64,000 nt of DNA from a virus (IMGVR_UViG_2861079508_000001), one strand, 5' to 3'; shown: positions 124 through 55,804, numbered from the stretch's first letter. The notes: generated from the letters alone by a model not told the origin. Numbers and translations are program-made.

Positions 124-3100
124 TTACAGAAGGCCAATTCTTACTCGTAGGACGTTGTTATCGTCATAAACGTCAATCCGCTGACCATTTATGACCAGTC
201 GCCCATTACCCCCGCTATTACCGTTGATCTCAAGCGTTCCATTTTTGCCGAACCGCCATCCAGATCTACCGCTAACAAAATTGGTAGATTGCAGATCGCC
301 TACTTTTGCATTGGTGATTGTGCCATCCTTGATATACGCACCATTCATATAGGCGATACTGTTTTCGATAACAAATGGCGTGGTGATCTTCCCGTTAACA
401 GAGTTGACCAAACCAAACCTGTCAGCCTGCACCAAAAACTGAGAAAGGCCAGTGGTGTCGATACCAAGCGCAATACCAGCAACATACTTCTGCCCTCCGC
501 TCGTTGAAGTTTCCATTTTCAACGTCCACGCGGTTGACACTTTTTTGTTGGTATCAGCAATAGCTGTTGCCTGCTGTTGAATTGTCGCGGTATTTCCATC
601 CACCTCTGCTTTCAGAGTATCGATTCGCCCACTCAGAGCATTATCTGCCTGCGTTCTCGCTGTCGTTTCAGTTGTTACCGCCGCGGAAATGTTGGCTGCC
701 GTTTGAGACTCTAAGTTTGTGATTTGAGTCGCCAATGCAGCATCTTGCTCTGTACGCGTTTTCGTTTCGGTTGCTACAGCCGCTTTAATATCCTCTTTGT
801 ATTGAGAGGTCAGCTTGGTGATCTGAGACGACAACGCCGAGTCAGCATCAGTTCGAGCCTGCGTTTCAACTGCAACGGCCGCACTAATATCTTTCGCTGT
901 CTGTGCTTTTAAACTTGAAACCTCTTTTGTTAAAGCGGTATCACCATCAGCACGAGCCGTTGTTTCTCTGGCAAGAGATGCCTCGAGATCATTAGCTTTT
1001 GCTGTAAGAGACGAAATCTGAGTGGACAATGCACTATCGGCATCAGTCCTTGCCTTTGTCTCTACAGCAACCGCTGCGGCAATATCAGTTCCGGTTTGTG
1101 CTCGCAGGCTGTTAATTTCTCGTGAGAGCGCCTGGTCAGCACTTGCTCTGGCCTCCTGCTCCTGAGTGATGGCAGCGGATATATCACCGTCAACCTTTGA
1201 CTGAAGCTGGTTTATTTGTTTGGCTAACGCAGAGTCCCCGCTTGCTCGGGCCTCCTGCTCACTACGTATTGCAGCAGAAATATCATCATCAACCTTTGCC
1301 TGAAGTTGGGTGATCTGGCTTGCCAGAGCCGAATCTTCCGTTGCTCGGGCTTCTTGCTCTTCCTTAATAGCTGCGACGATATCGTTGCTTACTTTCGACT
1401 CAAGCTGAGTGATCTGTGTCGTCAGAGCTTCATCGGCAGATGTGCGAGCCTCCTGCTCTGTACTAATCGCCGCGCTGATATCTCCTTCAAACTTAGATTG
1501 CAGCTGAGTGACACGCTTTGCCAACGCTTCATCGCCATCGGCACGAGCGGTGGACTCTTCCAGAATACTGGCCTTAATGTCTTCGCCAATTTCTACGCGA
1601 ATTTCCTCAACCTTCGTGGCCATTGCAGACATATCATCAGCAAAGGTTTTCTGTGTTGTTGCGATCTTCGCGTTATTGACCATCTGCTTGTGCTGGTCTT
1701 CATCTTGACGAAGAGCTAGGTCAATATTTGTTTTGGCTAACGCCTCAATGTTCGTAGTCAGTTCTGCACTGGCACGATCGACCTCTGCAACCGTCTTTTT
1801 CATTTCTTCAACGGCAGCGGAGCTTTCCTCTACCGTTGACTGCAACACTTCCAGTTGTTTAGCGTTTGCAGCATCGCCTTCAACACGAGCCTCGCTTTCC
1901 TTAGCAATAAGAGCCGCCGCTTCATCTCTTGCAGCCTTTATTGCCTCGACTGTATTAGCGAGAGCTTTATCGTGTTCAGATACGGTGTTTTCGATTTCAA
2001 CAATTGCAGCATCAGTAGCATCAATTTTTTCAAACGCTTCATTGACCTTGTCGATCGTTGCCGAAACCTCACCTTTAAGCTCGGTTTGTGCGTTCTCCAA
2101 AGCATCGCTACGCTCGTTGAATTTTATTTCAAAACCCGCGAGGTTATCGCTGAACTGCTTATCTAATTCAGCTATATCTTCCTTAACGTCGTTTACCGAC
2201 CCCTCCAAAGATTCGACGCTCTGGTTGATATGCTCATTTAACTCGTCAACTGCTTCTTGAGAGGCTTTGCTGTTGATGTCCTCAAGCAGAGCCTGACCAA
2301 GCTCGGAAGATGTAATTTTGCCAGCCAGGAACGACAGTACATCGCGAGTTGTCGCCTCTGTACCCAAGTTTGAGTTCGGAGGGCTTAACATACCTCGCTT
2401 GTTCGATGCTCGAACCCAGTAATACCACGTTTCGCTATCCCCAAGACCAGCATGTGTAAAGGTGGTGCTTGCAGACTCTGCGATCAGTTTCGCCGTATCC
2501 AGATTGTTGGTCTGGGATGCGTAAACATTAATGTGATCAAGGTCTACCGAATCTGGATTAACCCAATTCAGTATCACATTACGATAGTCTCCAACGGCCG
2601 TTAATGACGTTGGTGCATCCGGCGGTGTCATTGTGCCCAGCACCTGATAAACGGTACTGATAATTTCTGTTTTTTTACCGTTGAATGAAACCGCATACAG
2701 TTGGAAGTCGTAGCGTCCATTCTCCGCGACATTAACGATTTCGTATTGTTCTTCGGTTACACGCGCCGATTGCCAGTTCGATACATTGTTTTCATCAGAA
2801 CGTCGCCAACTGATCCAATACTCTGGAGATTTCCCTTCCCATGTTGCAGTCAGTTTTACTGACAGGTTGCCCGGGCTTGAGAGGTAAGTCCCTTCAGTGA
2901 TTTGCAAATTAGACGGCTTGGAGTAAGTCGGGTCCAATACCGTCGTATTCTGCGGGATAAGCGTTGCACCATTGTCGATCGCCTCATATTTAGACGGATT
3001 GTTTTCAACAGCGGTGATGTCAAAGCTACCCGACGTTTCCCCCTGAGCGATGTTAACGATGCGAACGCGCATAGGTTCGAGATCTGGTTCTGTAATTGTC

Positions 3101-4842
3101 CAGACACCGTTCAAAACAGGCGTTTCCGCTGACGACAGAGCTTTTGAAAACGTAACCTTTGTTATGTTTTCGCCAGTTTCAAGAACATCGCGCTCAACGA
3201 TTTTGCCTTCCTGATTCAATATCCGAATAAAGCTGCCGCTTTTAGCTAACGACACAGGCGCATCGAGAGTGATGCTGTTTTTGGTAAACTCCACAATTCG
3301 ACCGGAGTTACGTTTACCTGCACGATATTTGTTCTGAATCAGAACGGTTTCACCGGGCATCAGAAATGAGGCGTCTAAGCCGGCAGTAAATGTAATTACA
3401 TCCGACTCCATTCTGGCGGTATACAAAAGCCACAAACCAACTCGGTGAGCCTGGCCTCGGCTTGTACATCCAAATGCTACGACTTCTGTTTTACGCTCAC
3501 CATAACGGCGCATTGCGTCCTGATCTTCAACGTACTCGATGTTTTGCTTATAACCGTCCTCCTTGTTGTTGTAGGTTACGAGCGCAACGGATGGGCGATC
3601 TTTACGCGCAGAACCTTTATAGGTAAACAGTCCATCTTTGACGTTGGAGTTGGTAAACATCATTACTGGATCTGATGGGCTATCCTGCATGATGTTAACC
3701 ATGCCACCAGCCCAAAACACCATGCCGCGGAATGCACCGGCAATATCCTGAATTAATCGGTATGCGTCTTGTCGACTGGTGATCTGCGTATTGATTGCAA
3801 AGCGTTTCTCTTTACCCCCAAAGCCATCATCGACCTCTTCGTCACAATATCGACCAATCTGGTAGAGCTGGCCGAGGTCAATCATGGATTCCGACACAAA
3901 TTGCCCAAGACCATACCGAGTATTGGTAAGCAAATCGTAGAGAATCCACGCAGGGTTTGAAGAAGACAACAGCTTAAAAGTACCGTCCCATACGCCGACA
4001 TAAGTATTGGTGTATTCGTTGTCTCGGATTTTGATACCGCGCACCAAATACGAACGGGAAGGCATTGTGCTACCAAACTGCTCTGAATTGACCTTCAAGC
4101 CAACAAGAGCAGAGTTAGGGTAGTTCATTGGCGTGTCGACAATCTCACCTATGGAATCAACCCATGTGTCGTTGTAGAGGTACTGGCTACTGTTATCATC
4201 TGTAAGACGAATCACCCTAACCTTGTATGCACGACCAGGCTTAGGTAGTTTCAGCTCATAGCTACGGTAATACACGCCGGTTTTCTTTGCCGTTAGCGTG
4301 ATATCAACGCTTTTCTCACCTTCTGCCACTACATCAGAAAATGTTGCGTCTCCGTTGGCGATCTGGAATTTGTACTTCACCGTAGTGCCATTTGTATCGC
4401 CAGAGCTTTTATCAACGCTACGTAAAGAGGGGAATTTCATGATGACACGAACGCGATCAGCTTCATCGTTATCGATTGAAACCGTAACGTCGTGTGTTTT
4501 TTTAAGCTGAATATTTACGGACTTAGGCGTTTCGACAAAATCAAAACCAGCCATTGGCGTCTGGTCTTGTGAGCCGTCACGAAAATCCCATGTAATACCG
4601 CTGAAGTTGGAAGAGCCATCTTCATTCAAGATCGGTAAATCGTCGATGAAGATCGACTTTGCGCCATTTACCAGGCCACCGATAACCCCCTCGCCAAGAA
4701 GGTCGAGGATGGCTGCCATAGCACGAGAATTGACAGTATCATCAGCTTCAACCGGGGTACGGCTGGAGCTTTTACTTTTCTTGCCACCAGCACCGGCAAT
4801 AAGAAGCGGTAATTTTTTCTTCTTGAACTGTTCCATGTCCAA
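124..4842 (-). CDS. central tail fibre / host specificity protein (lambda gpJ-like), 1572 aa, with tandem coiled-coil repeats
   Basis: Size and position at the distal end of the tail module after I/K/L/M-like genes; about 14 tandem ~25-aa repeats (DISAAI..EQEAR..ALA.QI.QLQSKV). Confidence 0.8.
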   Translation of the reverse strand: MDMEQFKKKKLPLLIAGAGGKKSKSSSRTPVEADDTVNSRAMAAILDLLGEGVIGGLVNGAKSIFIDDLPILNEDGSSNFSGITWDFRDGSQDQTPMAGFDFVETPKSVNIQLKKTHDVTVSIDNDEADRVRVIMKFPSLRSVDKSSGDTNGTTVKYKFQIANGDATFSDVVAEGEKSVDITLTAKKTGVYYRSYELKLPKPGRAYKVRVIRLTDDNSSQYLYNDTWVDSIGEIVDTPMNYPNSALVGLKVNSEQFGSTMPSRSYLVRGIKIRDNEYTNTYVGVWDGTFKLLSSSNPAWILYDLLTNTRYGLGQFVSESMIDLGQLYQIGRYCDEEVDDGFGGKEKRFAINTQITSRQDAYRLIQDIAGAFRGMVFWAGGMVNIMQDSPSDPVMMFTNSNVKDGLFTYKGSARKDRPSVALVTYNNKEDGYKQNIEYVEDQDAMRRYGERKTEVVAFGCTSRGQAHRVGLWLLYTARMESDVITFTAGLDASFLMPGETVLIQNKYRAGKRNSGRIVEFTKNSITLDAPVSLAKSGSFIRILNQEGKIVERDVLETGENITKVTFSKALSSAETPVLNGVWTITEPDLEPMRVRIVNIAQGETSGSFDITAVENNPSKYEAIDNGATLIPQNTTVLDPTYSKPSNLQITEGTYLSSPGNLSVKLTATWEGKSPEYWISWRRSDENNVSNWQSARVTEEQYEIVNVAENGRYDFQLYAVSFNGKKTEIISTVYQVLGTMTPPDAPTSLTAVGDYRNVILNWVNPDSVDLDHINVYASQTNNLDTAKLIAESASTTFTHAGLGDSETWYYWVRASNKRGMLSPPNSNLGTEATTRDVLSFLAGKITSSELGQALLEDINSKASQEAVDELNEHINQSVESLEGSVNDVKEDIAELDKQFSDNLAGFEIKFNERSDALENAQTELKGEVSATIDKVNEAFEKIDATDAAIVEIENTVSEHDKALANTVEAIKAARDEAAALIAKESEARVEGDAANAKQLEVLQSTVEESSAAVEEMKKTVAEVDRASAELTTNIEALAKTNIDLALRQDEDQHKQMVNNAKIATTQKTFADDMSAMATKVEEIRVEIGEDIKASILEESTARADGDEALAKRVTQLQSKFEGDISAAISTEQEARTSADEALTTQITQLESKVSNDIVAAIKEEQEARATEDSALASQITQLQAKVDDDISAAIRSEQEARASGDSALAKQINQLQSKVDGDISAAITQEQEARASADQALSREINSLRAQTGTDIAAAVAVETKARTDADSALSTQISSLTAKANDLEASLARETTARADGDTALTKEVSSLKAQTAKDISAAVAVETQARTDADSALSSQITKLTSQYKEDIKAAVATETKTRTEQDAALATQITNLESQTAANISAAVTTETTARTQADNALSGRIDTLKAEVDGNTATIQQQATAIADTNKKVSTAWTLKMETSTSGGQKYVAGIALGIDTTGLSQFLVQADRFGLVNSVNGKITTPFVIENSIAYMNGAYIKDGTITNAKVGDLQSTNFVSGRSGWRFGKNGTLEINGNSGGNGRLVINGQRIDVYDDNNVLRVRIGLL
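590..1700. repeat. tandem ~75-bp in-frame repeats inside the tail fibre gene
   Basis: Periodic nucleotide and amino-acid repeat visible in the ORF translation and the DNA. Confidence 0.7.
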
Positions 4843-23695: not shown

Positions 23696-23744
23696 AGATC
23701 CCTCTAAAACACACAGAGCGCGTCCATGCGCTCTAAAACAACTT

Positions 23745-23776
23745 GTTTACTGCATTTTCTAACCAACTTGTTTTCT
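23745..23776. promoter_or_regulatory. two copies of palindromic motif AACAA-N-TTGTT(TTCT)
   Basis: AAAACAACTTGTTTAC and AACCAACTTGTTTTCT upstream of terminase small subunit. Confidence 0.45.
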
Positions 23777-29014: not shown

Positions 29015-29479
29015 ATGAAGTCTCCCATACTGTTCACTTTCTGTTCTAAAACTATCATGAAATACTCGCTTCTCCCTCTACTAACGTTACCAGTGTTGAT
29101 GCTTACCGCGTGCCAATCACGCCCAATATCAATCCATGACGCCAAACCAGCACCGCAGGCCAAAGTGTTCAAGTATCAAAGCGCAGCGCCAGCTACGTTG
29201 GTGGTAATGAGAGACACAGGTTTTGTAGGAGCTGGATGTGATGCTTCCATTTTCATCAACGGCGAAACTGTCGCAAAACTGGCTACAGGCGAAAAAGCGA
29301 CTTTCCATTTAAATGCCGGAGAATTAATTGTGGGTGCATCTCTTGAAGGTGCAGGTTTATGTGCTCTAAACCCCGCTCGTCAAGAGCGAGAAACGACTCT
29401 GAAGAATGGAGACACAAAAGCGTTCAGGGTGTTCACCAGCAATTCTGGTGACATCGACATTCTGCCAACAACTCTGTGA
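29015..29479 (+). CDS. lipoprotein (candidate superinfection exclusion protein)
   Basis: Signal peptide with lipobox LTAC; start may be internal Met (MKYSLL). Confidence 0.5.
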   Translation: MKSPILFTFCSKTIMKYSLLPLLTLPVLMLTACQSRPISIHDAKPAPQAKVFKYQSAAPATLVVMRDTGFVGAGCDASIFINGETVAKLATGEKATFHLNAGELIVGASLEGAGLCALNPARQERETTLKNGDTKAFRVFTSNSGDIDILPTTL

Positions 29480-29483
29480 TGAC

Positions 29484-30008
29484 ATGACAACCAAAGATAT
29501 TACCTACGGTATCCAAGCTGAACTCTGGCCGCGAGATTACACTAACGTTGAAAAACTACTGATGTTCTGGCGCAGAGAACAAATTCCTGTAAGGGTCACT
29601 CTCGAAGATGGCCAGGCGTTTTGCATGTACGTTTATGGCCTCATGCCATCTCGTAACAAAGTTGACCTTTGCCCAGCCCCTTTTGACAAAGAAAATCGTA
29701 TAAGGCTCCCACTTGAACGCATTAGTACAATTGAATCAGGTGTGGTTGACAGTATCGCTCACGATTTCAAAGGTCGACTAACAGTTCACCCTGATTATGT
29801 CGATAATCGGCCATCACGCCGCGATTTTTTTGCAATTTGCAACCAAGCCTACAAAGCAAACAAATCTATAAGGGTGTACATGGCGGATGGCCGTGAAATT
29901 GAGGGGGTGTCAGCAGGCGCAGATGCTTGTCAGGTTACACTACGTGTCGAGAACGGTAGAAAAATAGTTGTTTTGTTCGATTGGGTTGAACGAATTTTGC
30001 CTTTTTGA
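29484..30008 (+). CDS. hypothetical protein
   Basis: ORF 29406-30008 trimmed to first non-overlapping ATG (MTTKDITYG). Confidence 0.4.
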   Translation: MTTKDITYGIQAELWPRDYTNVEKLLMFWRREQIPVRVTLEDGQAFCMYVYGLMPSRNKVDLCPAPFDKENRIRLPLERISTIESGVVDSIAHDFKGRLTVHPDYVDNRPSRRDFFAICNQAYKANKSIRVYMADGREIEGVSAGADACQVTLRVENGRKIVVLFDWVERILPF

Positions 30009-37274: not shown

Positions 37275-37523
37275 TCAGCATTTTACCACCCCGTTCGGAA
37301 ACAACTCATTCGCCGTAGTTGATATAACCTCCCAATTAACGCCGACATCAGCGTTATGGCATTGTCTGATTTTTTGCATCACCTGTACGCATTGTTCATC
37401 AGTGAGATCTGTCCTTACTTCAGCAATATCTTCTTTGTGCCACATAACCATGAGTAAGGGTTCGTCTTCTGGATAGTTTTTCAGTTTCTCGATGATTTCT
37501 TTTGCTGTTCCAAACATCTTCAT
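37275..37523 (-). CDS. hypothetical protein
   Basis: 82 aa ORF with motif upstream. Confidence 0.45.
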   Translation of the reverse strand: MKMFGTAKEIIEKLKNYPEDEPLLMVMWHKEDIAEVRTDLTDEQCVQVMQKIRQCHNADVGVNWEVISTTANELFPNGVVKC

Positions 37524-37528
37524 CTCCT

Positions 37529-37593
37529 AAACAATTTGTTTTCTTATATGACTTATTATCTCAATCAACAAAAGGTAGAAAACAAATTGTTTT
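37529..37593. promoter_or_regulatory. two inverted copies of AACAA-N-TTGTT motif; the second is split by the host-segment junction
   Basis: AAACAATTTGTTTTCT and AGAAAACAAATTGTTTT; the latter is completed by TTGTTTTCTAG at about 41159. Confidence 0.5.
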
Positions 37594-37633
37594 AGAGTTT
37601 GTTAAAGTCAGAAGGGGTTGTGTCTATATGAAA

Positions 37634-37676: not shown

Positions 37677-39710
37677 TTACTTAACCTGGTGGCCAGGTTT
37701 AGCACCAGCATCCGGGCTTAACAGGAAGATATCTTTCCCGCCGGGGCCAGCAGCCATCACCATGCCTTCAGAGATACCGAAGCGCATTTTACGTGGTGCC
37801 AGGTTAGCCACCATAATGGTGTGACGACCAATCAGTGCCTGTGGATCTGGATAAGCGGAACGGATGCCTGAGAAGACATTACGCTTTTCACCACCGAGAT
37901 CCAGCGTCAGGCGAAGCAGTTTGTCAGAACCTTCTACAAACTCTGCGTTTTCAATCAGCGCCACGCGCAGGTCAACTTTGGCGAAGTCGTCAAAGGTGAT
38001 AGTTTCCTGAATCGGGTCGTCAGCCAGTGGGCCAGTTACCGGTGCGGCTGTGGCTTTCACTTCTTCTTTGGATGCTTCCACCAGTGCTTCAACCTGCTTC
38101 ATATCGATGCGGTTATACAGTGCCTTGAACGGATTCACTTTATGGCCCAGCAGCGGTTGCTGGATACCATCCCAGGTCAGTTCTGTATTCAGGAATGCTT
38201 CTGCACGTTCAGTCAGTTTCGGCAGTACCGGTTTCAGGTACGTCATCAGCACGCGGAACAGGTTAATGCCCATAGAGCAAATCGCCTGCAGATCGGCATC
38301 GCGTCCTTCCTGCTTTGCCACCACCCACGGAGCCTGTTCATCAACATAGCGGTTAGCCAGGTCAGCCAGTGCCATGATTTCACGGATAGCTTTGCCAAAT
38401 TCGCGGCTTTCCCATGCTTCGCCAATCACTTCAGCGGCATCAGTAAAGGTTTTGTACAGTTGCGGGTCAGCCAGTTCGCTTGCCAGCACGCCGTCAAAAC
38501 GCTTGTTGATAAAGCCTGCATTACGGGAGGCCAGGTTAACCACTTTGTTAACGATATCGGCATTCACACGCTGAACGAAATCTTCCAGGTTGAGATCGAT
38601 ATCATCAATGCGCGAAGAGAGTTTCGCAGTGTAGTAGTAACGCAGGCTGTCGGCGTCAAAATGATTCAGCCAGGTGCTGGCTTTAATAAAGGTGCCGCGA
38701 GACTTGGACATCTTCGCGCCGTTCACCGTCACATAGCCGTGAACAAACAGGTTGGTCGGCTTGCGGAAGTTGCTGCCTTCCAGCATGGCAGGCCAGAACA
38801 GGCTGTGGAAGTAAACGATATCTTTGCCGATGAAGTGGTACAGCTCGGCGGTGGAGTCTTTCTTCCAGTATTCGTCGAAGCTGGTAGTGTCGCCGCGTTT
38901 GTCGCACAGATTCTTGAAGGAACCCATGTAGCCAATCGGCGCGTCCAGCCAGACGTAGAAGTATTTGCCCGGTGCGTTCGGAATTTCAAAACCGAAGTAA
39001 GGTGCGTCACGGGAGATATCCCACTGTTGCAGGCCAGATTCAAACCACTCCTGCATTTTGTTTGCCACCTGCTCCTGCAACGCACCGCTGCGGGTCCATG
39101 CCTGCAACATTTCGCTGAAAGAAGGCAGATCAAAGAAGAAGTGTTCGGAATCACGCATTACCGGTGTAGCGCCAGAAACCACTGATTTCGGCTCGATCAG
39201 TTCCGTCGGGCTGTATGTCGCGCCGCAGACTTCACAGTTATCGCCGTATTGATCCGGCGCTTTACATTTCGGGCATGTGCCTTTTACAAAACGGTCCGGC
39301 AGGAACATGCCTTTTTCCGGGTCGTACAGCTGAGAGATGGTGCGGTTTTTAATAAAACCGTTCTCTTTCAGGCGAGTATAGATAAGCTCGGACAACTGAC
39401 GGTTCTCTTCGCTGTGCGTCGAGTGATAGTTGTCATAGCTGATGTTAAAGCCTGCGAAATCAGTCTGATGTTCCTGACTCATTTCGCCAATCATCTGTTC
39501 CGGTGTGATACCAAGCTGCTGTGCTTTCAGCATGATTGGCGTACCGTGGGCATCGTCGGCACAGATGAAATTAACCTCGTGGCCGCGCATTCGCTGGTAA
39601 CGAACCCAGACATCAGCCTGGATGTGCTCCAGCATATGGCCGAGGTGGATTGAGCCGTTAGCGTACGGCAGCGCGCACGTCACCAGAATTTTCTTCGCGA
39701 CTTGGGTCAT
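37677..39710 (-). CDS. metG: methionine--tRNA ligase (enterobacterial host-type)
   Basis: 677 aa from [25 protein letters not shown] (HIGH motif), KMSKS motif, C-terminal tRNA-binding domain; near-identical to Escherichia MetG by recall. Confidence 0.95.
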
Positions 39711-39867
39711 AGTAGGCATTACTTCTTTGTAGTGAAAAGGGGCTTGATAGTAACAAAATGGCCTTATGTCTGCCATGTGATAACAGCATTTCTCATAAAT
39801 GATTAAATGTCGTAGCTGGAGTACACTACAAGGCGACAATTGCGCAAATTAAAATAAAGGAGACGGG

Positions 39868-40968
39868 ATGAGCGAGTCCAAATCGCCGGATGCCCTGAGA
39901 GCAATGGTAGCCGGTACGCTGGCTAATTTTCAGCACCCAACCCTGAAACACAACCTGACTACGCTTAAAGCGTTACACCATGTTGCGTTGATGGATGACA
40001 CACTGCATGTCGAACTAATCATGCCTTTCGTGTGGAATAAGCCTTTTGAAGACCTGAAAGAGCAATGTAGTGGTGATCTGCTCCGTATCACTGGCGCAAA
40101 GGCTATTGACTGGAAGCTGTCGTACAACATTGCCACGCTTAAGCGCGTCAAAAACCAACCAGGCATTAATGGCGTTAAGAACATTATCGCCGTCAGCTCA
40201 GGCAAGGGCGGCGTGGGTAAATCCTCCACGGCGGTAAACCTGGCACTGGCGTTGGCTGCTGAAGGTGCGAAAGTTGGTATTTTGGATGCCGATATCTATG
40301 GTCCATCAATTCCAACCATGCTGGGCGCGGAAAACCAACGTCCAACCTCACCGGACGGTACTCACATGGCACCTATCATGTCTCATGGCCTGGCAACCAA
40401 CTCTATTGGTTATCTGGTCACCGACGACAATGCAATGGTGTGGCGTGGACCGATGGCCAGCAAGGCGCTGATGCAGATGTTGCAGGAAACACTGTGGCCT
40501 GATCTGGACTATCTCGTTCTCGATATGCCACCGGGCACTGGTGATATTCAATTGACGCTGGCGCAGAACATTCCTGTAACTGGTGCGGTTGTGGTAACTA
40601 CGCCGCAAGACATCGCGCTGATCGATGCGAAGAAAGGCATTGTGATGTTCGAAAAAGTCGAAGTGCCGGTACTGGGTATCGTTGAAAACATGAGTGTGCA
40701 TATTTGCAGTAACTGCGGTCATCACGAGCCAATTTTTGGCACCGGTGGCGCACAGAAACTGGCCGAGAAATACAACACGCAGTTGTTAGGCCAAATGCCA
40801 CTTCATATCTCTCTTCGTGAAGATCTGGATAACGGAACACCAACCGTTATTAGTCGTCCAGATAGTGAATTTACGGCTATTTATCGTGACCTCGCAGATC
40901 GCGTTGCTGCCCAAATGTATTGGCAAGGTGAAGTAATACCTGGCGAAATCGCATTCCGCGCAGTGTGA
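39868..40968 (+). CDS. apbC: Fe-S cluster carrier ATPase ApbC/Mrp
   Basis: Walker [11 protein letters not shown] and CxxC motif CSNCGH; divergent from metG as in enterobacterial chromosomes. Confidence 0.95.
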
Positions 40969-41266
40969 TAAAAAGGTGGTGCTTTTGCCGTTACGCACCA
41001 CCCCGTCAGTAGCTGAACAGGAGGGACAGCTGATAGAAACAGAAGCCACTGGAGCACCTCAAAAACACCATCATACACTAAATCAGTAAGTTGGCAGCAT
41101 CACCGAGCGCCAGCGGCGAACATATGAGCTTCGGAAATACTAGACATTCTTAACTCCGTTGTTTTCTAGTTGTGGTTATTTTCACAAATAAGAAAAGATA
41201 GAAAACAATTTATTTAAGGCCACAACTTATGGCCTTTATTTATTCATGCCGAAGGATTTGTAGCGT

Positions 41267-41647
41267 CTAATTGCCGGATAAAATGGGGTGAGGTGCTTGC
41301 CAGTAGGCTCCACCGTTCCATGTGAACCCCATGCGAATAAGAGTGTTTATTGCGGCTTTGGTAGACTCCGATTCGACACTGGCTTTACGAAACTCTTGAA
41401 CCTCTTTCGCCAACTTGTATGTAATTGTGCAGGGGACGATTGCAGCCCAGCCTTTCTCATGACTGTTAATGACCATCTGGATGTGACCATCCAGAATAGG
41501 TTGATTAGGCATGTTATTGAAAATGTCTGCCTGTTTTTGAATGTGAAGAAAAAGCCTTGCCAGCGCCATTTGCTCACTACGAGACAAGGGATTATCAAGA
41601 GGGCTTTTTGCAAAAGCTGCTATACGCTGTGCATCAATGCCAAACAT
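41267..41647 (-). CDS. hypothetical protein
   Basis: 126 aa ORF. Confidence 0.45.
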   Translation of the reverse strand: MFGIDAQRIAAFAKSPLDNPLSRSEQMALARLFLHIQKQADIFNNMPNQPILDGHIQMVINSHEKGWAAIVPCTITYKLAKEVQEFRKASVESESTKAAINTLIRMGFTWNGGAYWQAPHPILSGN

Positions 41648-42351
41648 CAGCGCACCTCACCATCTTTATGGCTGGAGTTAACTTCCGTCATTAAATGTCT
41701 GACGTAATCGACAAGAGAGCCGCCTGGTGGAATCTGGCATTCCTCAACTAACTGGAAGTAGATATCCGCTGCATTACGTGTATTGCTACCCGCGCATATT
41801 CTTTCTTCCCGAAGTGCATGAAGCTCGTTGATCAAACGGTCACACTCTCCGTTACGCTGATCCACAACGGCCTCAAGCTCTGCGACGCGTTCACCTGGCG
41901 TCTTACCTTCTTTGCGTTGGATGGTAACGACGAAATCGCCAATTGCAGGGACGTTGTAATCCAGCTCAAGGTAGTTTTTGGCACCGCTGCGGACGAACTC
42001 ACCCGCGAACATGGTGGCGAACATCGCAGAGGCCACTTCTCCGTTGAAAAGTGACTCCAGATCTAACGGAGTCCCGGCAGCAAGAGCCTCTTTTGCTGTA
42101 TCCATTGCATCCATGAACCGATCAAACTCACTAGCGCGCTTTTCCAGGTCTTTCCATTGCTCGCTCCAACGTTTGGCAACGAAGTCTATGAATGTTTTCG
42201 CGGATTCATCAAAATTCCCCTCAAACTTAACGATGCCTTTATCAATAATGATCTGGCCTACCGCATCCTCTGCATAACCTTTCAATGTAAACTTGAAAGG
42301 AAAATCGGAATGGCCTGTGACGTTAAAATGCTCTAACTGGAGGTTGCTCAT
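41647..42351 (-). CDS. hypothetical protein
   Basis: 234 aa ORF. Confidence 0.45.
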   Translation of the reverse strand: MSNLQLEHFNVTGHSDFPFKFTLKGYAEDAVGQIIIDKGIVKFEGNFDESAKTFIDFVAKRWSEQWKDLEKRASEFDRFMDAMDTAKEALAAGTPLDLESLFNGEVASAMFATMFAGEFVRSGAKNYLELDYNVPAIGDFVVTIQRKEGKTPGERVAELEAVVDQRNGECDRLINELHALREERICAGSNTRNAADIYFQLVEECQIPPGGSLVDYVRHLMTEVNSSHKDGEVR

Positions 42352-42412
42352 GTGTTTTTCTCTTATCGTTTAGTAACTACATTCTTACATAAATTAAGTA
42401 AGCATTTACCTA

Positions 42413-44098
42413 TCATTTAACGCGTTTGAAAACGTATACGCTGACTGTGATCCCTGTGTCTTCAAACTCGTTGGTAAACGACTTCCCTCTGGCATAAACG
42501 TAATTATCCATCGTCATCCAGTCCAGTATTGGCGCAGTGCCCGGCAATACTGCTACAAGACGCCCGCCGACTTTCAGATGCCCCAGCGCAGCCAGCGTGT
42601 GCTCTCTATGACGACCAAGCGAGTACGGCGGGTTCATAACGATTTTGTCGAACTGATAACCTGCGTTGTCCTCAGACCACTTTATGAAGTCGCAGCAAAT
42701 CGTGTTCGTATACCCTTTTCCACGCAGGATATCAGCGAAGAGAGGTGCGATTTCTATGCAGGTAACATCTTCCAGATCGGCGTCAATATAGGCCAGAAGA
42801 TCCCCACGTCCGGCTTGAGGCTCCAACAGCTTCTCACCAGGCTTCAATTCAGTGGCTCTTGCAACGTACTCAGCAATCAAGCGTGGGGTAGGGTAGAACT
42901 GGTGTGATTTTGTATCCGGTATTAAACCGGTAGCCACAATCGTATTTAGCGTATGGCCGATGTCATACGGGAACTGCCAGTGCTTTTTCTCCTGCACGCC
43001 GCCAATGAAGCTCAGTGTGCGCTCAAGCTCTTCCACCTGCGACTTCTGGAGAGCTGAATCAGAGAAGTACCATACACCTTTGTCTTTGCTCAATCGCCCG
43101 TCACGAAGCGCAGTGCGAACCGGCACGGAGATCGTCTTCTGGATTAAACCGAACTGCTTTGGTGCCCGTGTTTTTGGCGCAGTTCGGCATGGCGCGGGGA
43201 TTGCAGCAGGCATACTGTAAGCCAGCACCTCATTCAACTTCCAGGCCACGTCAGGATGTATTTCAAAGTGAACGTTGCCGTTCTTGAACATCTTCACGCG
43301 CATCAGATTTCCATCGACGTTCATCCAGTCACCGGTCTGGCAGTCGTTTGCCCGATACGCAGCTGATAGCACCTCAGCAGTGCGGTTGATGGTAATAAAT
43401 TCTTTGTGCGCGAAGAAATGAAGCAAGACACGCAGATCGTCGATGTAGTCCTCTTTGCGATAGTTCACGCTAACGCTGTCCCGCCAGAAATCAGAAATGC
43501 AGTCAGCGATTATCAGCCGCTCGCTGAAACCATTTGTCTTATTTGTCTTGTGCACAGGACTCAGCGCCTTAAACAAGCCATACACGCGCTCAGAGAGATA
43601 TTTGTGCCTGTCATTCAGCAAATTAAGCATCGTGGGTATGACCGTTTCTGCTTTGAACTCCGGTACACCAACGAACTCTTTAACCTTCATCTGGTAGCCG
43701 GTTCTGTCAGTTTTGATGACTTCCTGTTTGCCCTCTATAAACTGCTCGCGCCACTCATCTCGACGGGAAGCTGGCATGATCAGCAAAACGTTAGTCATGT
43801 CCGTGACCTTCCTCCAGTACTCGGCCCAAATATTCTGTTTCACCCATTCCAGATCGACTTTATCCAACCAACCTCGATTTAAACGCGAGCGATCTTCATC
43901 TGGTCGATGGTTTAGTTTCAGCAGGCGATTAATCATGTTGTGGCGTTCGTCGCCATAAACGAAGTTGTGAACCTGATACATGAAGGCGATCTCTTTCTCG
44001 CACTCGGCCACAATTTCGTGGATAACGTTCATTTCCTGACGATAATCGATAGCAGTGTTTGAGCTGGCATCGTCGATGATGGAAAGGGCTGTATTCAT
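42413..44098 (-). CDS. N6-adenine DNA methyltransferase with large N-terminal domain of unknown function
   Basis: C-terminal motifs FYPTP, EPQAGRGD (AdoMet binding) and NPPY (catalytic). Confidence 0.65.
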   Translation of the reverse strand: MNTALSIIDDASSNTAIDYRQEMNVIHEIVAECEKEIAFMYQVHNFVYGDERHNMINRLLKLNHRPDEDRSRLNRGWLDKVDLEWVKQNIWAEYWRKVTDMTNVLLIMPASRRDEWREQFIEGKQEVIKTDRTGYQMKVKEFVGVPEFKAETVIPTMLNLLNDRHKYLSERVYGLFKALSPVHKTNKTNGFSERLIIADCISDFWRDSVSVNYRKEDYIDDLRVLLHFFAHKEFITINRTAEVLSAAYRANDCQTGDWMNVDGNLMRVKMFKNGNVHFEIHPDVAWKLNEVLAYSMPAAIPAPCRTAPKTRAPKQFGLIQKTISVPVRTALRDGRLSKDKGVWYFSDSALQKSQVEELERTLSFIGGVQEKKHWQFPYDIGHTLNTIVATGLIPDTKSHQFYPTPRLIAEYVARATELKPGEKLLEPQAGRGDLLAYIDADLEDVTCIEIAPLFADILRGKGYTNTICCDFIKWSEDNAGYQFDKIVMNPPYSLGRHREHTLAALGHLKVGGRLVAVLPGTAPILDWMTMDNYVYARGKSFTNEFEDTGITVSVYVFKRVK

Positions 44099-44110
44099 AA
44101 TTACACCATT

Positions 44111-44126
44111 AAATAATTTGTTTTCT
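44111..44126. promoter_or_regulatory. palindromic motif AAATAATTTGTTTTCT
   Basis: immediately upstream of methyltransferase gene. Confidence 0.45.
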
Positions 44127-44239
44127 GATTGGTGTAATTATCGCAAACTTGAAAAGGCATAAAAGCTGCATTCATAGGCGTTACAGCAGATTTAAGGCGT
44201 AAAAATGGGGGCTGTCGCCCCCTGTCGACTGGTGCTGTA

Positions 44240-44806
44240 TTAGAGTGCGTATTGCGTTTTGTGCGGCTGCTTATTCAAGTCATGGCGATGCGTGAGCTCC
44301 CGCATCATGTCTTCAAGGCGACTCTTTGTGTCGTCGAGCTGGTCGGCCATTGCACCTAAAAGCTGGCGAACGGCCATCGGATCGTCGCTGTTTAGTGATG
44401 GCATTTTAGAACCTGCTTTAGAAGACATAAGGTTGATTGCAGACATCAACATCGTTAGAGAGGATTTAAGCCCGGCAATTTCACGATCTTTGCTGGCAAT
44501 AATCGTCTCACTTTTGTTACCGTCATCAGTTTCTTGAGTCTCGCTCACCATATCCAAAGTCGCTTGCAACTTATCAGCTCTCTCTTTTTCAGCAAGGTAA
44601 TGAACACCGAAATGGTGTGCCAAAGCTACAATCTGAGTTGGCTCTTCAAAGGTGGAATTAAAATTAAGTATTGTAAACAGTCTCTCAAATATGGAAACGT
44701 CTTCTATTCCTCGAAGAATGGCTAACATTTTGACCAGTTCATTAGCATCCATTTCTTCGAATAAGGCGTTTTGTTCATCAGCTATCGCTTTGCATTTCTT
44801 GCACAT
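44240..44806 (-). CDS. hypothetical protein
   Basis: 188 aa ORF with motif upstream. Confidence 0.45.
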   Translation of the reverse strand: MCKKCKAIADEQNALFEEMDANELVKMLAILRGIEDVSIFERLFTILNFNSTFEEPTQIVALAHHFGVHYLAEKERADKLQATLDMVSETQETDDGNKSETIIASKDREIAGLKSSLTMLMSAINLMSSKAGSKMPSLNSDDPMAVRQLLGAMADQLDDTKSRLEDMMRELTHRHDLNKQPHKTQYAL

Positions 44807-44824
44807 GTGTTTTTCCTAATGCTT

Positions 44825-44840
44825 AAACAAGTTGTTTTCT
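44825..44840. promoter_or_regulatory. palindromic motif AAACAAGTTGTTTTCT
   Basis: upstream of 44240-44806. Confidence 0.45.
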
Positions 44841-45103
44841 TATTGTCTTTATTGTGATGTGGCATAAAAGGGGAGCAAGCTAAACGTAAAGGTGCAAACT
44901 CTCTATTTCGGTCAACGAAACACAAGGGCCATTTGGCCCTTGTCATTAACACTTTGCTTTACGAACTAACGGATAAGCGAAGTAGATCGCCAAACCAATG
45001 AGGACGCCATCAGAAATGACAGACATCATCTTTCCCGTAAAATCCACCAACACCGCCATCACCAGAAGAGCAATGACGATCACAAGCCGGAATCTCTCAA
45101 GCA

Positions 45104-45529
45104 TTAGAGATAAGCATCCAGTGACAACTGAAGCGCCTGGGCGATCTTTTTCAGTGCCTGCTCTTCTTGTTCACCAATGCCGTCCTGATCGGCAATATCA
45201 AGGCACAGACACAGAACATCGACCGCCTCTGGAGTACCCGCAATATCAGACAGCTCACGAATAGCCTGTGCATTAGCAGAACGAGGGGACGCTTCGTAAC
45301 GAGCACGGATATTGGCGCTCATTTGGGCAATTTCACCAGCAAACGGAGAAAACGCAGGCAGAGCTGCAATTGTCTTCTCAAGAATGGCAATTTCTTTTGC
45401 GTCACATGTGCCGTCGGCATAGGAGATCATGTACGCGCCCCACACGGTGGCCTCAACCGCATCACGGTTCTCCATTTTTTTGACTTCGATAACAGCTTTA
45501 CGAGTTTTCTTTTTGAAGAAACCTAACAT
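45104..45529 (-). CDS. TerB-like domain protein (putative)
   Basis: 141 aa, weak resemblance to TerB/DUF533 helical fold. Confidence 0.35.
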   Translation of the reverse strand: MLGFFKKKTRKAVIEVKKMENRDAVEATVWGAYMISYADGTCDAKEIAILEKTIAALPAFSPFAGEIAQMSANIRARYEASPRSANAQAIRELSDIAGTPEAVDVLCLCLDIADQDGIGEQEEQALKKIAQALQLSLDAYL

Positions 45530-45552
45530 GTGCTTTCCTTTTATTATTTGTC

Positions 45553-45569
45553 AAAACAAGTTGTTTTCT
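45553..45569. promoter_or_regulatory. palindromic motif AAAACAAGTTGTTTTCT
   Basis: upstream of 45104-45529. Confidence 0.45.
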
Positions 45570-45622
45570 AATTACATAAATTGCTTACGCAGAGATGGTC
45601 AATGCATATGCACTAACAGCCG

Positions 45623-45811
45623 TCAGAAATAACCAAGTACCGAACCAACTGGAAAAACAAAAATCCCAACTACACGAGCCAAGGTCATGCCAGCCTGAAA
45701 CTGGAGATCGCCAGAGCAAACAAGTTTTATAATGTTCGATACCCAACCGGCGGCCATAAGGGCAAGAATTGCCAGCCAAATTTTTCCAAAGTGATTTGAA
45801 AACCAGTTCAT
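45623..45811 (-). CDS. small membrane protein (two predicted TM helices)
   Basis: 62 aa hydrophobic ORF. Confidence 0.4.
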   Translation of the reverse strand: MNWFSNHFGKIWLAILALMAAGWVSNIIKLVCSGDLQFQAGMTLARVVGIFVFPVGSVLGYF

Positions 45812-45820
45812 ACAACCGCC

Positions 45821-46315
45821 TTAGTCACAGCATGATCCTGAGTAACTGGATGAACTTGAGGTATCGCATCCACCGCCATCCCATCCAGAGTGACAGGACG
45901 CTCCACTGGAGTGGTGGTAATTGTCGTCGACGAAGGTGTGGTGATGGATGAATCCGGCATCAAAAGGCTCTGACCGGCTGGAACGGCTACCGTCGCCAGT
46001 GAAACTATAATGAGAACGTAGGCCATTGGTTTCAGCCTCTTTCTTTGAAAATTTTCCATTCGAACTGTCCTTGTTGTTTTTCTCCTTCACTAAAGGCCGT
46101 GCATTTTTCGCTTCGCGTGAAGAACCAGAGGCAACAATCGCCCCCACGTTCGCAACAACTGACGCTTGATTATCTAAACGTTCATTCAGCAACCGAACGG
46201 TAGTCTCTAGTTCATCAAGGCGTGACATAACACGACCGCTAAATAATTCGGCCAAAATTTGACGTAAAGAACGAGGACGTTTAGTTACAGAAGTGAAATA
46301 GGTTTGACGTGCCAT
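45821..46315 (-). CDS. hypothetical protein (C-terminal part low-complexity; overlapping 83-aa signal-anchor ORF 45808-46059 in another frame)
   Basis: ORF track; overlapping frames. Confidence 0.3.
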   Translation of the reverse strand: MARQTYFTSVTKRPRSLRQILAELFSGRVMSRLDELETTVRLLNERLDNQASVVANVGAIVASGSSREAKNARPLVKEKNNKDSSNGKFSKKEAETNGLRSHYSFTGDGSRSSRSEPFDAGFIHHHTFVDDNYHHSSGASCHSGWDGGGCDTSSSSSYSGSCCD

Positions 46316-46463
46316 GTGGACTCCATCCAGTGTCAGAAAGAGTTGCGGCTGGCGATTGCCAGCCGCCTTTCTCGTTCCATCCTGGAACTGTGTCTTACCG
46401 ACACATTGTCATCCTGACGCCGATAAGATACATGATTTAAAATGATAGGTAAAAACTTACTTA

Positions 46464-48052: not shown

Positions 48053-48646
48053 CTAAGCAGCCTTCTTTGATGGTCTTTTTTTCCTGATCACATTCGCAGG
48101 ATCATACCCTCCCAGACTTTTCATGACGTCCAAAGGGATCTTGCTTATAGAGTGCCCAGCGTCCTGACAGAATCCTCGAAAAACAACGAGCATACTGCCA
48201 CCTGGGTTGATGTTTACTTCTACCTGACCCAGATTTACGTCAGGCTCGACAAACGCTACGCGGCCACCAGACAGAATAATCGTCTCATTCGCACACTCTG
48301 TTGCACGCTCATACCACTTTGTATCTAGGGATTGAGGAATTAGCATCACTGTTGTAACTCCGCGAGCCTGCTCACGTATAGCCGCATCAATCCAGGGGTA
48401 GATTTTGGAGTAGGGTGGATTGAGGAAGGCAATTGTACCTGGCTGTCCCCATTCAGATTTCAAAGCATCACGCTCAACGCCTATGAAATTAGGCAGCTTT
48501 GCATTGTCCTTGTTGCAGGCAACGTCAACATCAAATGTCACTCCAAGATAACGTTGAATGGCAGAAAACAGCCAGTCAGGTGTTCTCCAGAGGTCACGAA
48601 GAGAGTTGTCACGCTTTCGCTGTTTGATTTTTTCGGCTGCAATCAT
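48053..48646 (-). CDS. dam: phage Dam-type N6-adenine DNA methyltransferase
   Basis: Small MTase with NPPYS catalytic motif. Confidence 0.8.
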   Translation of the reverse strand: MIAAEKIKQRKRDNSLRDLWRTPDWLFSAIQRYLGVTFDVDVACNKDNAKLPNFIGVERDALKSEWGQPGTIAFLNPPYSKIYPWIDAAIREQARGVTTVMLIPQSLDTKWYERATECANETIILSGGRVAFVEPDVNLGQVEVNINPGGSMLVVFRGFCQDAGHSISKIPLDVMKSLGGYDPANVIRKKRPSKKAA

Positions 48647-50845: not shown

Positions 50846-51490
50846 CTAATGAACGGTCACTCGGCCACAGAACCGGTTTTCTATCTTTTCTACAGCGTTA
50901 TCTAGCATTCTCATCACTGATCGGGCTCTTGCTTCAACCGTGCGATATCGGTTGGAAACGACGAAGGTTTGCAGATCTCCCCTTTGCGGATGCAGGTGAA
51001 TTTTTGTCAGTTCCCCGCACATCAACGCATCAATACGAGCGACATACAGACGGTCTAATGATGCTCGTTGTGATCGCAAGTAATCTCGCTCTGAGAGAGC
51101 GACTCCCGGGCGTAAGCCAGCAATGGCGTTAAAGTTTGAAATAGCAGTTTTGTGGCAAAACTTTTCGATATCGAGGGCTAACTCAATACACCGATCTTCA
51201 TTTGTATGGCCGACCAAATCCAACGTGTAGGCCATAACATCAGCAGGTGTGCGATCGATAACAAAGCCTTCAACACCACGCGTAAGTAGCTCTATATGCT
51301 TTGCTATTTCCATTTGAATCTGAAGCCGCTCATATAGAGGCATAGAATCACCTACTCGAACACCGAGGCGGCTCATCAAACTTCCGACACCAGCATCCAC
51401 GTAAGGGATTCCGTAATGTTTGTCGATATATTTAGCCAGGGTTGTTTTCCCACTGCCCTGAGCACCAGTGATCCCAATCCGGTAATCCAT
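50846..51490 (-). CDS. P-loop nucleotide kinase (dNMP kinase-like)
   Basis: Walker A GAQGSGKTT; context among nucleotide-metabolism genes. Confidence 0.5.
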   Translation of the reverse strand: MDYRIGITGAQGSGKTTLAKYIDKHYGIPYVDAGVGSLMSRLGVRVGDSMPLYERLQIQMEIAKHIELLTRGVEGFVIDRTPADVMAYTLDLVGHTNEDRCIELALDIEKFCHKTAISNFNAIAGLRPGVALSERDYLRSQRASLDRLYVARIDALMCGELTKIHLHPQRGDLQTFVVSNRYRTVEARARSVMRMLDNAVEKIENRFCGRVTVH

Positions 51491-51966
51491 TACGACCTTC
51501 TGTATACGATCTGCGAAAAGCCAGGCTCTTCCTCGCTGGCTCGTTGGGTATAAGCTGTTTCAACAGGCACAAAGCCTAAGTTACGCATCATGCTTGCCGG
51601 GAAGAATGCATCGGCGTTTGGTACATCAATGCCGATGTGGGAGAGCCAAATCTCTTCAACATGCGGCATGAATAGCGAGTAAATTTGTTCCCCGCCAATC
51701 ACCCACACAGGCTCTGGTAATCGCAACACATCATCCACACCAGCAGGGTAGAATCCATTTGGTACAAAGCCATGAGAGCGCGTCAAAACGAGGTTATGAC
51801 GCTCTGGAAGAGGGCGTTTGAGACTTTCCATCGTTTTACGCCCCATAACGACAGTGGCGTTTTTGGTGAGTCTCTTAAATAGCTTCAGATCGGTAGAACA
51901 ACGCCAGGGGAGTTCATTCGCTATGCCGATCTCATAGTTACGGCCAACAGCAGCGATCATCTTCAT
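51490..51966 (-). CDS. frd: dihydrofolate reductase
   Basis: DHFR family pattern (ELPWR, VVMGRKT, VWVIGG). Confidence 0.8.
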   Translation of the reverse strand: MKMIAAVGRNYEIGIANELPWRCSTDLKLFKRLTKNATVVMGRKTMESLKRPLPERHNLVLTRSHGFVPNGFYPAGVDDVLRLPEPVWVIGGEQIYSLFMPHVEEIWLSHIGIDVPNADAFFPASMMRNLGFVPVETAYTQRASEEEPGFSQIVYRRS

Positions 51967-55772: not shown

Positions 55773-55804
55773 AAACAAGTTGTTATCTTATTTGTTTAAA
55801 CAAG
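55773..55804. promoter_or_regulatory. palindromic motif AAACAAGTTGTTATCT plus GTTTAAACAAGG
   Basis: between nrdA and nrdB. Confidence 0.4.

Follow-up and report, generated by a model that had tools for sequence, protein, structure and literature searches.

Do the genes between positions 41,267 and 46,315 of the viral DNA stretch IMGVR_UViG_2861079508_000001 (64,000 nucleotides [nt] in all; hereafter, the window) form a single device, and what is the role of the long methyltransferase (MTase) among them? An earlier note on this DNA had described the block as seven motif-driven genes making up an anti-restriction or host-takeover module, in which an N6-adenine MTase fused to an uncharacterized N-terminal domain stands beside a TerB-like protein and small membrane proteins, an arrangement that it held to be not obviously known. 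We found that the 561-amino-acid (561-aa) MTase belongs to a large, already named family and is most likely an orphan DNA adenine MTase, expressed early and protecting phage DNA from restriction. The block probably represents part of the early or accessory arm of an SSU5-type phage-plasmid and would consist of small independent units rather than of a single system.

The 6.2 kb around the block are 100% identical to sequences of the Escherichia coli plasmids pSLy3 (NZ_CP015915.1, 114 kb) and NZ_CP080257.1, 96 to 98% identical to those of phages Cyrano, CMS-2020a, and PhiR41_1, and ∼85% identical to that of Salmonella phage SSU5; at least 80% of the block is present in 158 complete E. coli genomes. 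Because of this identity to pSLy3, Cyrano, CMS-2020a, PhiR41_1, and SSU5, we assign the window to an SSU5-type phage-plasmid of E. coli. Elements of this kind occur commonly in E. coli, Klebsiella, and Salmonella, sometimes with resistance genes such as blaCTX-M-15 aboard, and early genes for establishment in new hosts bear on their spread. The open reading frames (ORFs) listed in the note are all real and lie on the minus strand where it had placed them. Since every component falls into a catalogued family and the sequence is held in public annotated records (the genes carry annotations in RefSeq and from the authors of the Cyrano genome), the block was already known as an object. It is largely ordinary, and its arrangement has a precedent in phage P1. 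The most interesting remainder is the DUF4942 core of the MTase, which is conserved, has no detectable fold relative, and is joined to a minimal MTase in hundreds of mobile-element lineages.

The 561-aa protein is indeed an amino-MTase with a long N-terminal part of unassigned function. Pfam DUF4942 (PF13708) matches residues 140 to 295 with 72 bits against a cutoff of 25 (E = 6e-20), and PHROG 6263, "DNA methyltransferase," covers the whole protein (residues 1 to 561 aligned to profile positions 1 to 548, E = 1e-298). The PF13708 model sits within the N-terminal region, and the C-terminal MTase domain thus goes unnamed in most annotations. SSU5_095 of SSU5, CYRAN_90 of Cyrano, and WP_065304493.1 of RefSeq are annotated in the same family. 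A search of 1.8 billion representative proteins, using only residues 1 to 380 as the query, retrieved 603 protein clusters, nearly all of 510 to 580 aa. NPP[YFW] was present at ∼87% of the length in 128 of the 131 full-length matches, all found with the N-terminal part alone; the NPPY of the 561-aa protein occupies residues 489 to 492. The supposedly unusual fusion is thus how a large known family is invariably built. Our protein keeps the domain order and length of this family and has all of its invariant residues, and we classify it as an ordinary member of DUF4942/PHROG 6263 with no structural difference.

Motifs X (F/Y-x-T-P), I (ExxxGxG), and IV (NPPY/F) follow each other in gamma-class order on a Rossmann fold, and the FYPTP, EPQAGRGD, and NPPY sequences singled out previously are present and conserved across 30 homologs. 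Residue 561, the last of the protein, is also the end of the catalytic domain, and no target-recognition domain lies C-terminal to it as in M.TaqI; any recognition element is therefore N-terminal or absent. The best sequence matches are profiles of DNA MTases (PADLOC type II MTase, 3e-10; mad2, 2e-15; and the PHROG entry), those to mad2 and the type II MTase being confined to the MTase domain (residues 394 to 523). Among nine neighboring products, we found no match to PADLOC models, including those of MADS, no partner nuclease or effector, and no restriction-enzyme or defense profile.

We then compared the conservation of the N-terminal module with that of the catalytic domain across 150 diverse members. 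The core of the module (residues 150 to 305) had a mean pairwise identity of 0.46 versus 0.42 for the catalytic domain, and 23 of its columns were at least 95% conserved versus 18, while residues 20 to 121 and 306 to 395 were far more variable (0.27 to 0.29). In a DNA MTase, the target-recognition domain normally varies more than any other part. Conserved to the same degree as the catalytic domain, the core is therefore no variable recognition domain of the standard kind, and we regard it as a constant functional module. The note had allowed that profile searches might reduce the block to a standard recognition domain among known phage proteins; the neighbors do belong to known phage families, but the N-terminal domain matches no such standard. 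Foldseek searches of the module against viral models returned just two unnamed or uncharacterized proteins, PDB sequences searched by profile yielded nothing informative, the weak matches having a best E value of 0.021, and Pfam scans of 13 family members at E values up to 1 found DUF4942 alone.

Within the core, strict invariance holds for S180, H183, T185, N186, H277, and N289, and D221, R223, W258, and D262 come close to it. Secondary structure prediction placed strands at residues 266 to 270 and 276 to 280 and a helix at 282 to 295, which together form a beta-beta-alpha unit carrying an invariant His and Asn and reminiscent of a His-Me finger (H277 and N289, 100% invariant; D262, 98%; E279 and H281, 88 to 89%). 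A His-Me-finger-like nuclease at this place would make the protein a single-chain restriction-modification enzyme, which would methylate its own DNA and attack that of a host or competitor where unmodified; we give this idea hardly any credence, as a His-Me or HNH nuclease in residues 256 to 311 found no profile support.

The genomic company of the family is more telling. Full-length homologs of ∼31% identity occur in IncHI conjugative plasmids, one of them adjoining a Dam gene, and distant members are found in prophages of Variovorax and of an Enterobacterales bacterium, in an early operon running from a cI/Cro-like switch and directly beside other orphan DNA MTases and replication genes. Of the plasmid records searched, 2,133 had full-length matches (at least 80% of the query), with the remaining plasmid matches mostly limited to the catalytic domain, and the same catalytic domain is embedded in giant phage proteins (PHROG profiles of 1,259 to 3,925 positions). 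YdcA, a stand-alone MTase of 187 aa from IncF leading regions, has a catalytic domain 31% identical over 121 residues (E = 2e-14) with the same motif order. Like the MTase of the block, YdcA is carried on a mobile element, where it lies between an antirestriction gene and ssb, near psiA, but it lacks the whole N-terminal module. The possibility that IncF ydcA and ydbA, the gene upstream of it, represent a split 561-aa protein was ruled out, YdbA being a DUF3560 protein with no similarity to the N-terminal part.

M.EcoGIX/M.BceJIII and M.EcoGII are orphan adenine MTases of plasmids or prophages, silent in their original host in the laboratory and of relaxed or no specificity, and for M.EcoGIX both early expression on entry and protection from restriction were shown (PMC7736820, PMC5778455). 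We consider them functional analogs, as orphan N6-methyladenine (m6A) MTases on mobile elements. However, they are beta-class enzymes with a DPPY motif and no DUF4942 module, whereas the 561-aa protein has NPPY and the gamma-class order, and homology is limited to the Rossmann core; membership of our protein in the beta-class M.EcoGIX group was rejected.

A protective orphan DNA MTase is our best reading because relatives stand in prophage early operons next to orphan MTases, because of the homology to YdcA, and because the neighbors are without restriction or defense profiles. We propose that on entry or induction, the DUF4942 MTase would methylate the phage-plasmid DNA and shield it from host restriction enzymes. 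Substrate binding or targeting, as a constant function, would fall to the conserved core (residues 150 to 305), and specificity may be tuned by the more variable residues 306 to 395.

Several points weigh against this proposal. The best structural match is METTL5, a ribosomal RNA (rRNA) m6A MTase, and some homologs match Pfam MTS, a family of rRNA and protein MTases, which leaves DNA as the substrate a prediction. With an rRNA MTase as the closest structure, the 561-aa protein might instead methylate RNA (m6A or N2-methylguanine in rRNA or transfer RNA [tRNA]) or a protein in the course of host takeover, its N-terminal module docking on a ribosomal or other host target. We consider this unlikely: the sequence profiles favor DNA MTases, the structural scores of M.BseCI, M.TaqI, and CamA almost equal that of METTL5 at higher identity (20 to 27% versus 16%), and the genomic company is centered on DNA (orphan DNA MTases, replication genes, and plasmid leading regions). 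For a protective DNA MTase, a further difficulty is that the phage already has a Dam-type MTase, the separate Dam gene pointed out before (48053 to 48646; Pfam Dam, E = 3e-38), and a second protective enzyme is hard to account for. In addition, the invariant polar residues of the core resemble an active or ligand-binding site rather than a surface for DNA recognition, and the protein may act beyond, or other than by, simple protective methylation. A literature search turned up no experiment on any DUF4942 protein, the papers that mention the name having it in neither title nor abstract, and nothing relevant on methylation in SSU5 and pHCM2. DUF4942 MTases are widespread, and a single methylome experiment would annotate the whole family.

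We next consider whether the MTase and its neighbors act together, starting with the TerB-like gene. Its 141-aa product is 78.7% identical to TciA of phage P1 over 141 aa. Both marks of the P1 TciA/TciB pair are found here, a TerB protein of ∼141 aa and a DUF3927/TciB membrane protein directly after it, and we identify the TerB-like gene and the following 52-aa gene as this pair. The TerB-like and small membrane proteins had been seen correctly, but the 52-aa gene at 44946 to 45104 had been overlooked; its start overlaps the tciA stop, and it is annotated in RefSeq and in phage Cyrano. In P1, tciA-tciB-tciC belong to the ban operon, which is controlled by the C1 repressor, and lie immediately downstream of the orphan MTase gene dmt; an orphan MTase gene next to a TerB-like one therefore has a direct precedent. 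As in P1, TciB follows TciA with overlapping stop and start codons, near an orphan MTase gene and behind a (here putative) repressor operator. Unlike in P1, tciC is absent from the block, the tciAB unit has its own terminator with no helicase gene after it, and the putative operator is a 15-bp palindrome instead of the asymmetric 17-bp C1 site. The P1 tciABC genes were non-essential in a CRISPR interference screen (PMC10695390) and constitute a variable region among P1-like phage-plasmids (PMC9603915). We infer a probable role at the membrane for TciA, which has a TerB fold, and for TciB, its membrane partner with two helices; the pair would serve stress tolerance or the exclusion of phages or colicins.

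Three terminator-like hairpins and three predicted motif-bearing promoters split the block into tciA-tciB, the 188-aa gene, and the MTase gene with the 234-aa and 126-aa genes (Table 1). The content of these units varies between relatives. SSU5 has the anti-repressor gene Ant in place of tciAB and retains the MTase and 188-aa genes, the MTase and 188-aa genes of Cyrano are separated by two extra genes, and in pLAU-OXA1, ISEcp1-blaCTX-M-15 is inserted between tciB and the 188-aa gene, at the equivalent of window positions ∼44810 to 44945; resistance genes have therefore been acquired inside the block in some relatives. We read the block as a mosaic of exchangeable early cassettes, in three or four units that probably share a regulator, and not as one anti-restriction machine. 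That the seven genes are a co-functional anti-restriction or host-takeover module, in which the TerB-like and membrane proteins work together with the MTase, would agree with their common strand, with the palindrome close to the promoters of three units, which makes co-regulation probable, and with the P1 tciABC genes also adjoining an orphan MTase gene. We nevertheless judge it very improbable. Separate promoters and terminators divide the block, its parts are replaced in SSU5 and interrupted in Cyrano and in other plasmids as described above, DUF4942 MTases occur elsewhere without TerB neighbors, TciAB occurs in many phages with no DUF4942 gene under the match, and copies of the motif lie before unrelated genes too, nrdB at 55773 among them. 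Thus, anti-restriction stands as the best inference for the MTase, but the extension of this role to the block as one module does not, given its several promoters and terminators and its variable content.

The motif said to drive all seven genes is real and enriched. AACAANTTGTT with at most one mismatch occurred 16 times versus 4.1 expected, a number reached in none of 100 shuffles, and the extended minus-strand motif GAAAACAAnTTGTTT with at most three mismatches had 39 matches on both strands versus 6.8 in shuffles. The block contains two exact copies of AACAANTTGTT (44826 to 44836 and 45555 to 45565) and two with one mismatch (44112 to 44122 and 41204 to 41214). These precede three units alone, and none lies before the cluster of the 164-, 83-, and 62-aa genes; that the motif drives all seven genes was thus overstated. 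The motif does mark promoter regions, as had been suggested: eight copies with at most one mismatch lie 13 to 40 nt upstream of minus-strand start codons, and at six of the eight, a −10 box ends 10 to 11 nt before the motif, three or four of these boxes having an upstream TG (for example, TGcGATAAT-N11-GAAAACAAATTATTT before the MTase gene and TGaGATAAT before the gene at 37512). Neither tciA nor the nrdB-like gene showed a clear −10 box. The palindrome also has copies before the tciA homolog of Klebsiella phage pJN2-26 and before the 188-aa gene homologs of SSU5 and pJN2-26. The MTase genes of these two elements have the same upstream arrangement with an exact motif, and both elements share the terminator-plus-motif arrangement found beyond the 126-aa gene.

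Folded as RNA, the palindrome reached −0.7 to −1.8 kcal/mol, no better than shuffled sequence. Its reading as an RNA hairpin was rejected on this ground, and a DNA-binding protein is favored. We propose that the palindrome is the operator of a dimeric DNA-binding phage repressor and overlaps the transcription start. Each of the three units would have a sigma-70-type −10 box, extended in the case of the MTase, with the palindrome GAAAACAAnTTGTTT closely after or overlapping it, and lifting of repression would switch on the palindrome-bearing units together. Early expression of the MTase under such control has its own weak points, in that the promoters and operators are predicted from consensus and position only and that the tciA promoter is poorly defined.

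A divergent region of low GC content encodes a FljA-like protein of 200 aa (29406 to 30008, plus strand; Pfam PF03614, E = 2.5e-84); FljA itself represses phase-1 flagellin. In a set of 50,697 phage records, full-length homologs were found in SSU5-type phages only, and two weak partial matches came from short unrelated records. The FljA-like protein is a candidate for the palindrome binder or, alternatively, for a modulator of host flagellin. As a separate observation, palindromes are paired ∼25 to 51 bp apart at 37529 to 37594, 41165 to 41217, and 23736 to 23775, the upstream copy lying directly after a terminator hairpin. In the pairs at 37.5 and 41.2 kb (37581/37530; 41204), the two copies bracket the −10 box, a layout that recurs in SSU5 and pJN2-26, and many of the genes concerned have the translation-start context AGGAAAAACACATG in common.

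In a more far-reaching scenario, the DUF4942 core would be a new-fold module, enzymatic or specific for a ligand or structure, the family would constitute a distinct class of mobile-element MTases, and the palindrome and the FljA-like protein would jointly form the lysis-lysogeny switch of SSU5-type elements. The new fold is suggested by the core having no PDB or Pfam relative, by its conservation at the level of the catalytic domain, and by its invariant Ser/His/Thr/Asn/Asp/Arg/Trp constellation. MTases of such a class might be coupled to single-stranded or replicating DNA, or act without sequence specificity, as shown for M.EcoGIX, to which they are not related; or else a second chemical step might accompany methylation. 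We put this forward tentatively and think it rather doubtful as a whole.

Table 1. Genes and putative regulatory sites of the block, in window coordinates
Feature	Position	Strand	Description
Terminator hairpin	41216-41236	−	Motif copy (41203-41217) directly after; opens promoter region of next gene
126-aa protein	41267-41647	−	"Eaa-like" in Cyrano; PHROG 10451, E = 3e-82, function unassigned
234-aa protein	41647-42351	−	"Ead/Ea22-like" in Cyrano annotation; PHROG 8364, E = 3e-147, function unassigned
DUF4942-family MTase, 561 aa	42413-44098	−	Residues 1-395, N-terminal module; 396-561, amino-MTase domain with gamma-class motif order
Putative MTase promoter-operator	44111-44145	−	Extended −10 TGCGATAAT (44137-44145), 11 nt, then GAAAACAAATTATTT (44111-44125, one mismatch)
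Intrinsic-terminator-like hairpin ending 188-aa unit	44207-44222	−	GGGGGCGACAGCCCCC then ATTTTTAC
188-aa protein	44240-44806	−	PHROG 5508, E = 2e-108, function unassigned; N-terminal CxxC, coiled-coil-like remainder
Palindrome GAAAACAACTTGTTT, putative promoter-operator of 188-aa gene	44825-44839	−	Exact; ∼10 nt downstream of −10-like CACAAT
Terminator-like hairpin ending tciAB unit	44922-44943	−	9-bp stem, 6 GC pairs, then GTTTCGTT
tciB, 52 aa	44946-45104	−	DUF3927, Pfam E = 3.4e-12; PHROG 1470 "TciB-like," E = 1.4e-21; two hydrophobic helices
tciA, 141 aa	45104-45529	−	TerB domain, Pfam E = 2.4e-7; PHROG 632, E = 5e-63
Palindrome GAAAACAACTTGTTT, putative operator of tciA	45554-45568	−	Exact match, 25 nt upstream of tciA ATG
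62-aa protein	45623-45811	−	Two hydrophobic helices; PHROG 6006, E = 2e-25
Frame B, 83 aa	45808-46059	−	+1 frame; PHROG 15659, E = 8e-47; signal-peptide-like N-terminus, Thr/Pro-rich part
Frame A, 164 aa	45821-46315	−	PHROG 10411, E = 7e-79; coiled-coil N-half, Ser/Gly/His/Cys-rich C-half ending CCD

Among the smaller genes, that for the 234-aa protein is probably co-transcribed with the MTase gene, a terminator scan having found no terminator-like site in the 61-nt gap between them, and the start of the 126-aa gene overlaps the stop of the 234-aa gene (TGATG). The 188-aa protein had no match in Pfam, NCBIfam, or PADLOC. The 62-aa gene has a normal codon-position pattern and is missing in one Salmonella variant.

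The overlapping ORFs at 45808 to 46315 look dual-coding. The two frames share 236 nt, and the stop codon of frame B runs into the ATG of the 62-aa gene; of the pair, just the longer frame (164 aa) has a RefSeq annotation. A search of species-representative genomes for the two frames returned SSU5-like variants and one weak unrelated match, and diverged variants were obtained via protein clusters. Both frames are open in seven lineages differing by 30 to 55% at the protein level, and the indels among three nucleotide-aligned lineages are all multiples of three. Upstream of the overlap, frame A shows 0.31, 0.22, and 0.54 differences per site at the first, second, and third codon positions, a normal coding pattern; within the overlap, the values by frame-A codon position are 0.37, 0.28, and 0.27. 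The third position of frame A thus loses its excess variability there, and the most variable position is the first of A, which is the third of B, still below the level of a free third position. When frame B was recoded with synonymous codons, frame A stayed open in 4 to 6% of the trials per lineage. From the open frames, the codon-position shift, and this low chance, both frames therefore appear constrained. The pair resembles the embedded Rz/Rz1 spanin genes of lambdoid phages in having a second gene in the +1 frame inside the first, whose product has an export-signal-like N-terminus and a Pro/Thr-rich body. Unlike in Rz/Rz1, however, frame B runs 13 nt past the frame A stop, and the pair lies outside a lysis cassette. 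A spanin pair was rejected, as eight sequences from seven lineages showed no transmembrane helix in A and no conserved lipobox Cys in B.

A strong hairpin of 9 bp with 8 GC pairs and no clear T-tract lies at 46345 to 46366, 30 nt upstream of the 164-aa gene in the spacer between rnhA and frame A, and beside it, at 46374 to 46419, is a weak CsrB match far below threshold (E = 0.21). A search for known RNA families and tRNAs found none in the block, giving just two matches far below threshold.

On the other side of the block, an IS1 match covers positions 41000 to 41104/41108, and the IS1 end fragment (∼40975 to 41104) abuts apbC. Its end at ∼41104 cuts off the gene downstream of the 126-aa gene, of which the promoter, motif, and ATG (41145 to 41147) remain. 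In Cyrano, ∼3.9 kb are kept downstream of the 126-aa gene that are here replaced by the IS1 end, and this missing stretch includes a LexA-like S24 peptidase gene and Ea22/Eae-like genes. Positions 37677 to 40968 encode a full-length methionyl-tRNA synthetase (metG) and apbC/mrp, with a host-like GC content of 0.50 to 0.52. The two genes are not an assembly artifact because phage Cyrano has both too; the corresponding SSU5 stretch examined has no metG. Finally, the nucleotide-metabolism cluster includes a phage dihydrofolate reductase, named trimethoprim-resistant DfrA51 in RefSeq, which is encoded at 51490 to 51966 on the minus strand and flanked by a thymidylate synthase/kinase group and the gene of an AAA ATPase.

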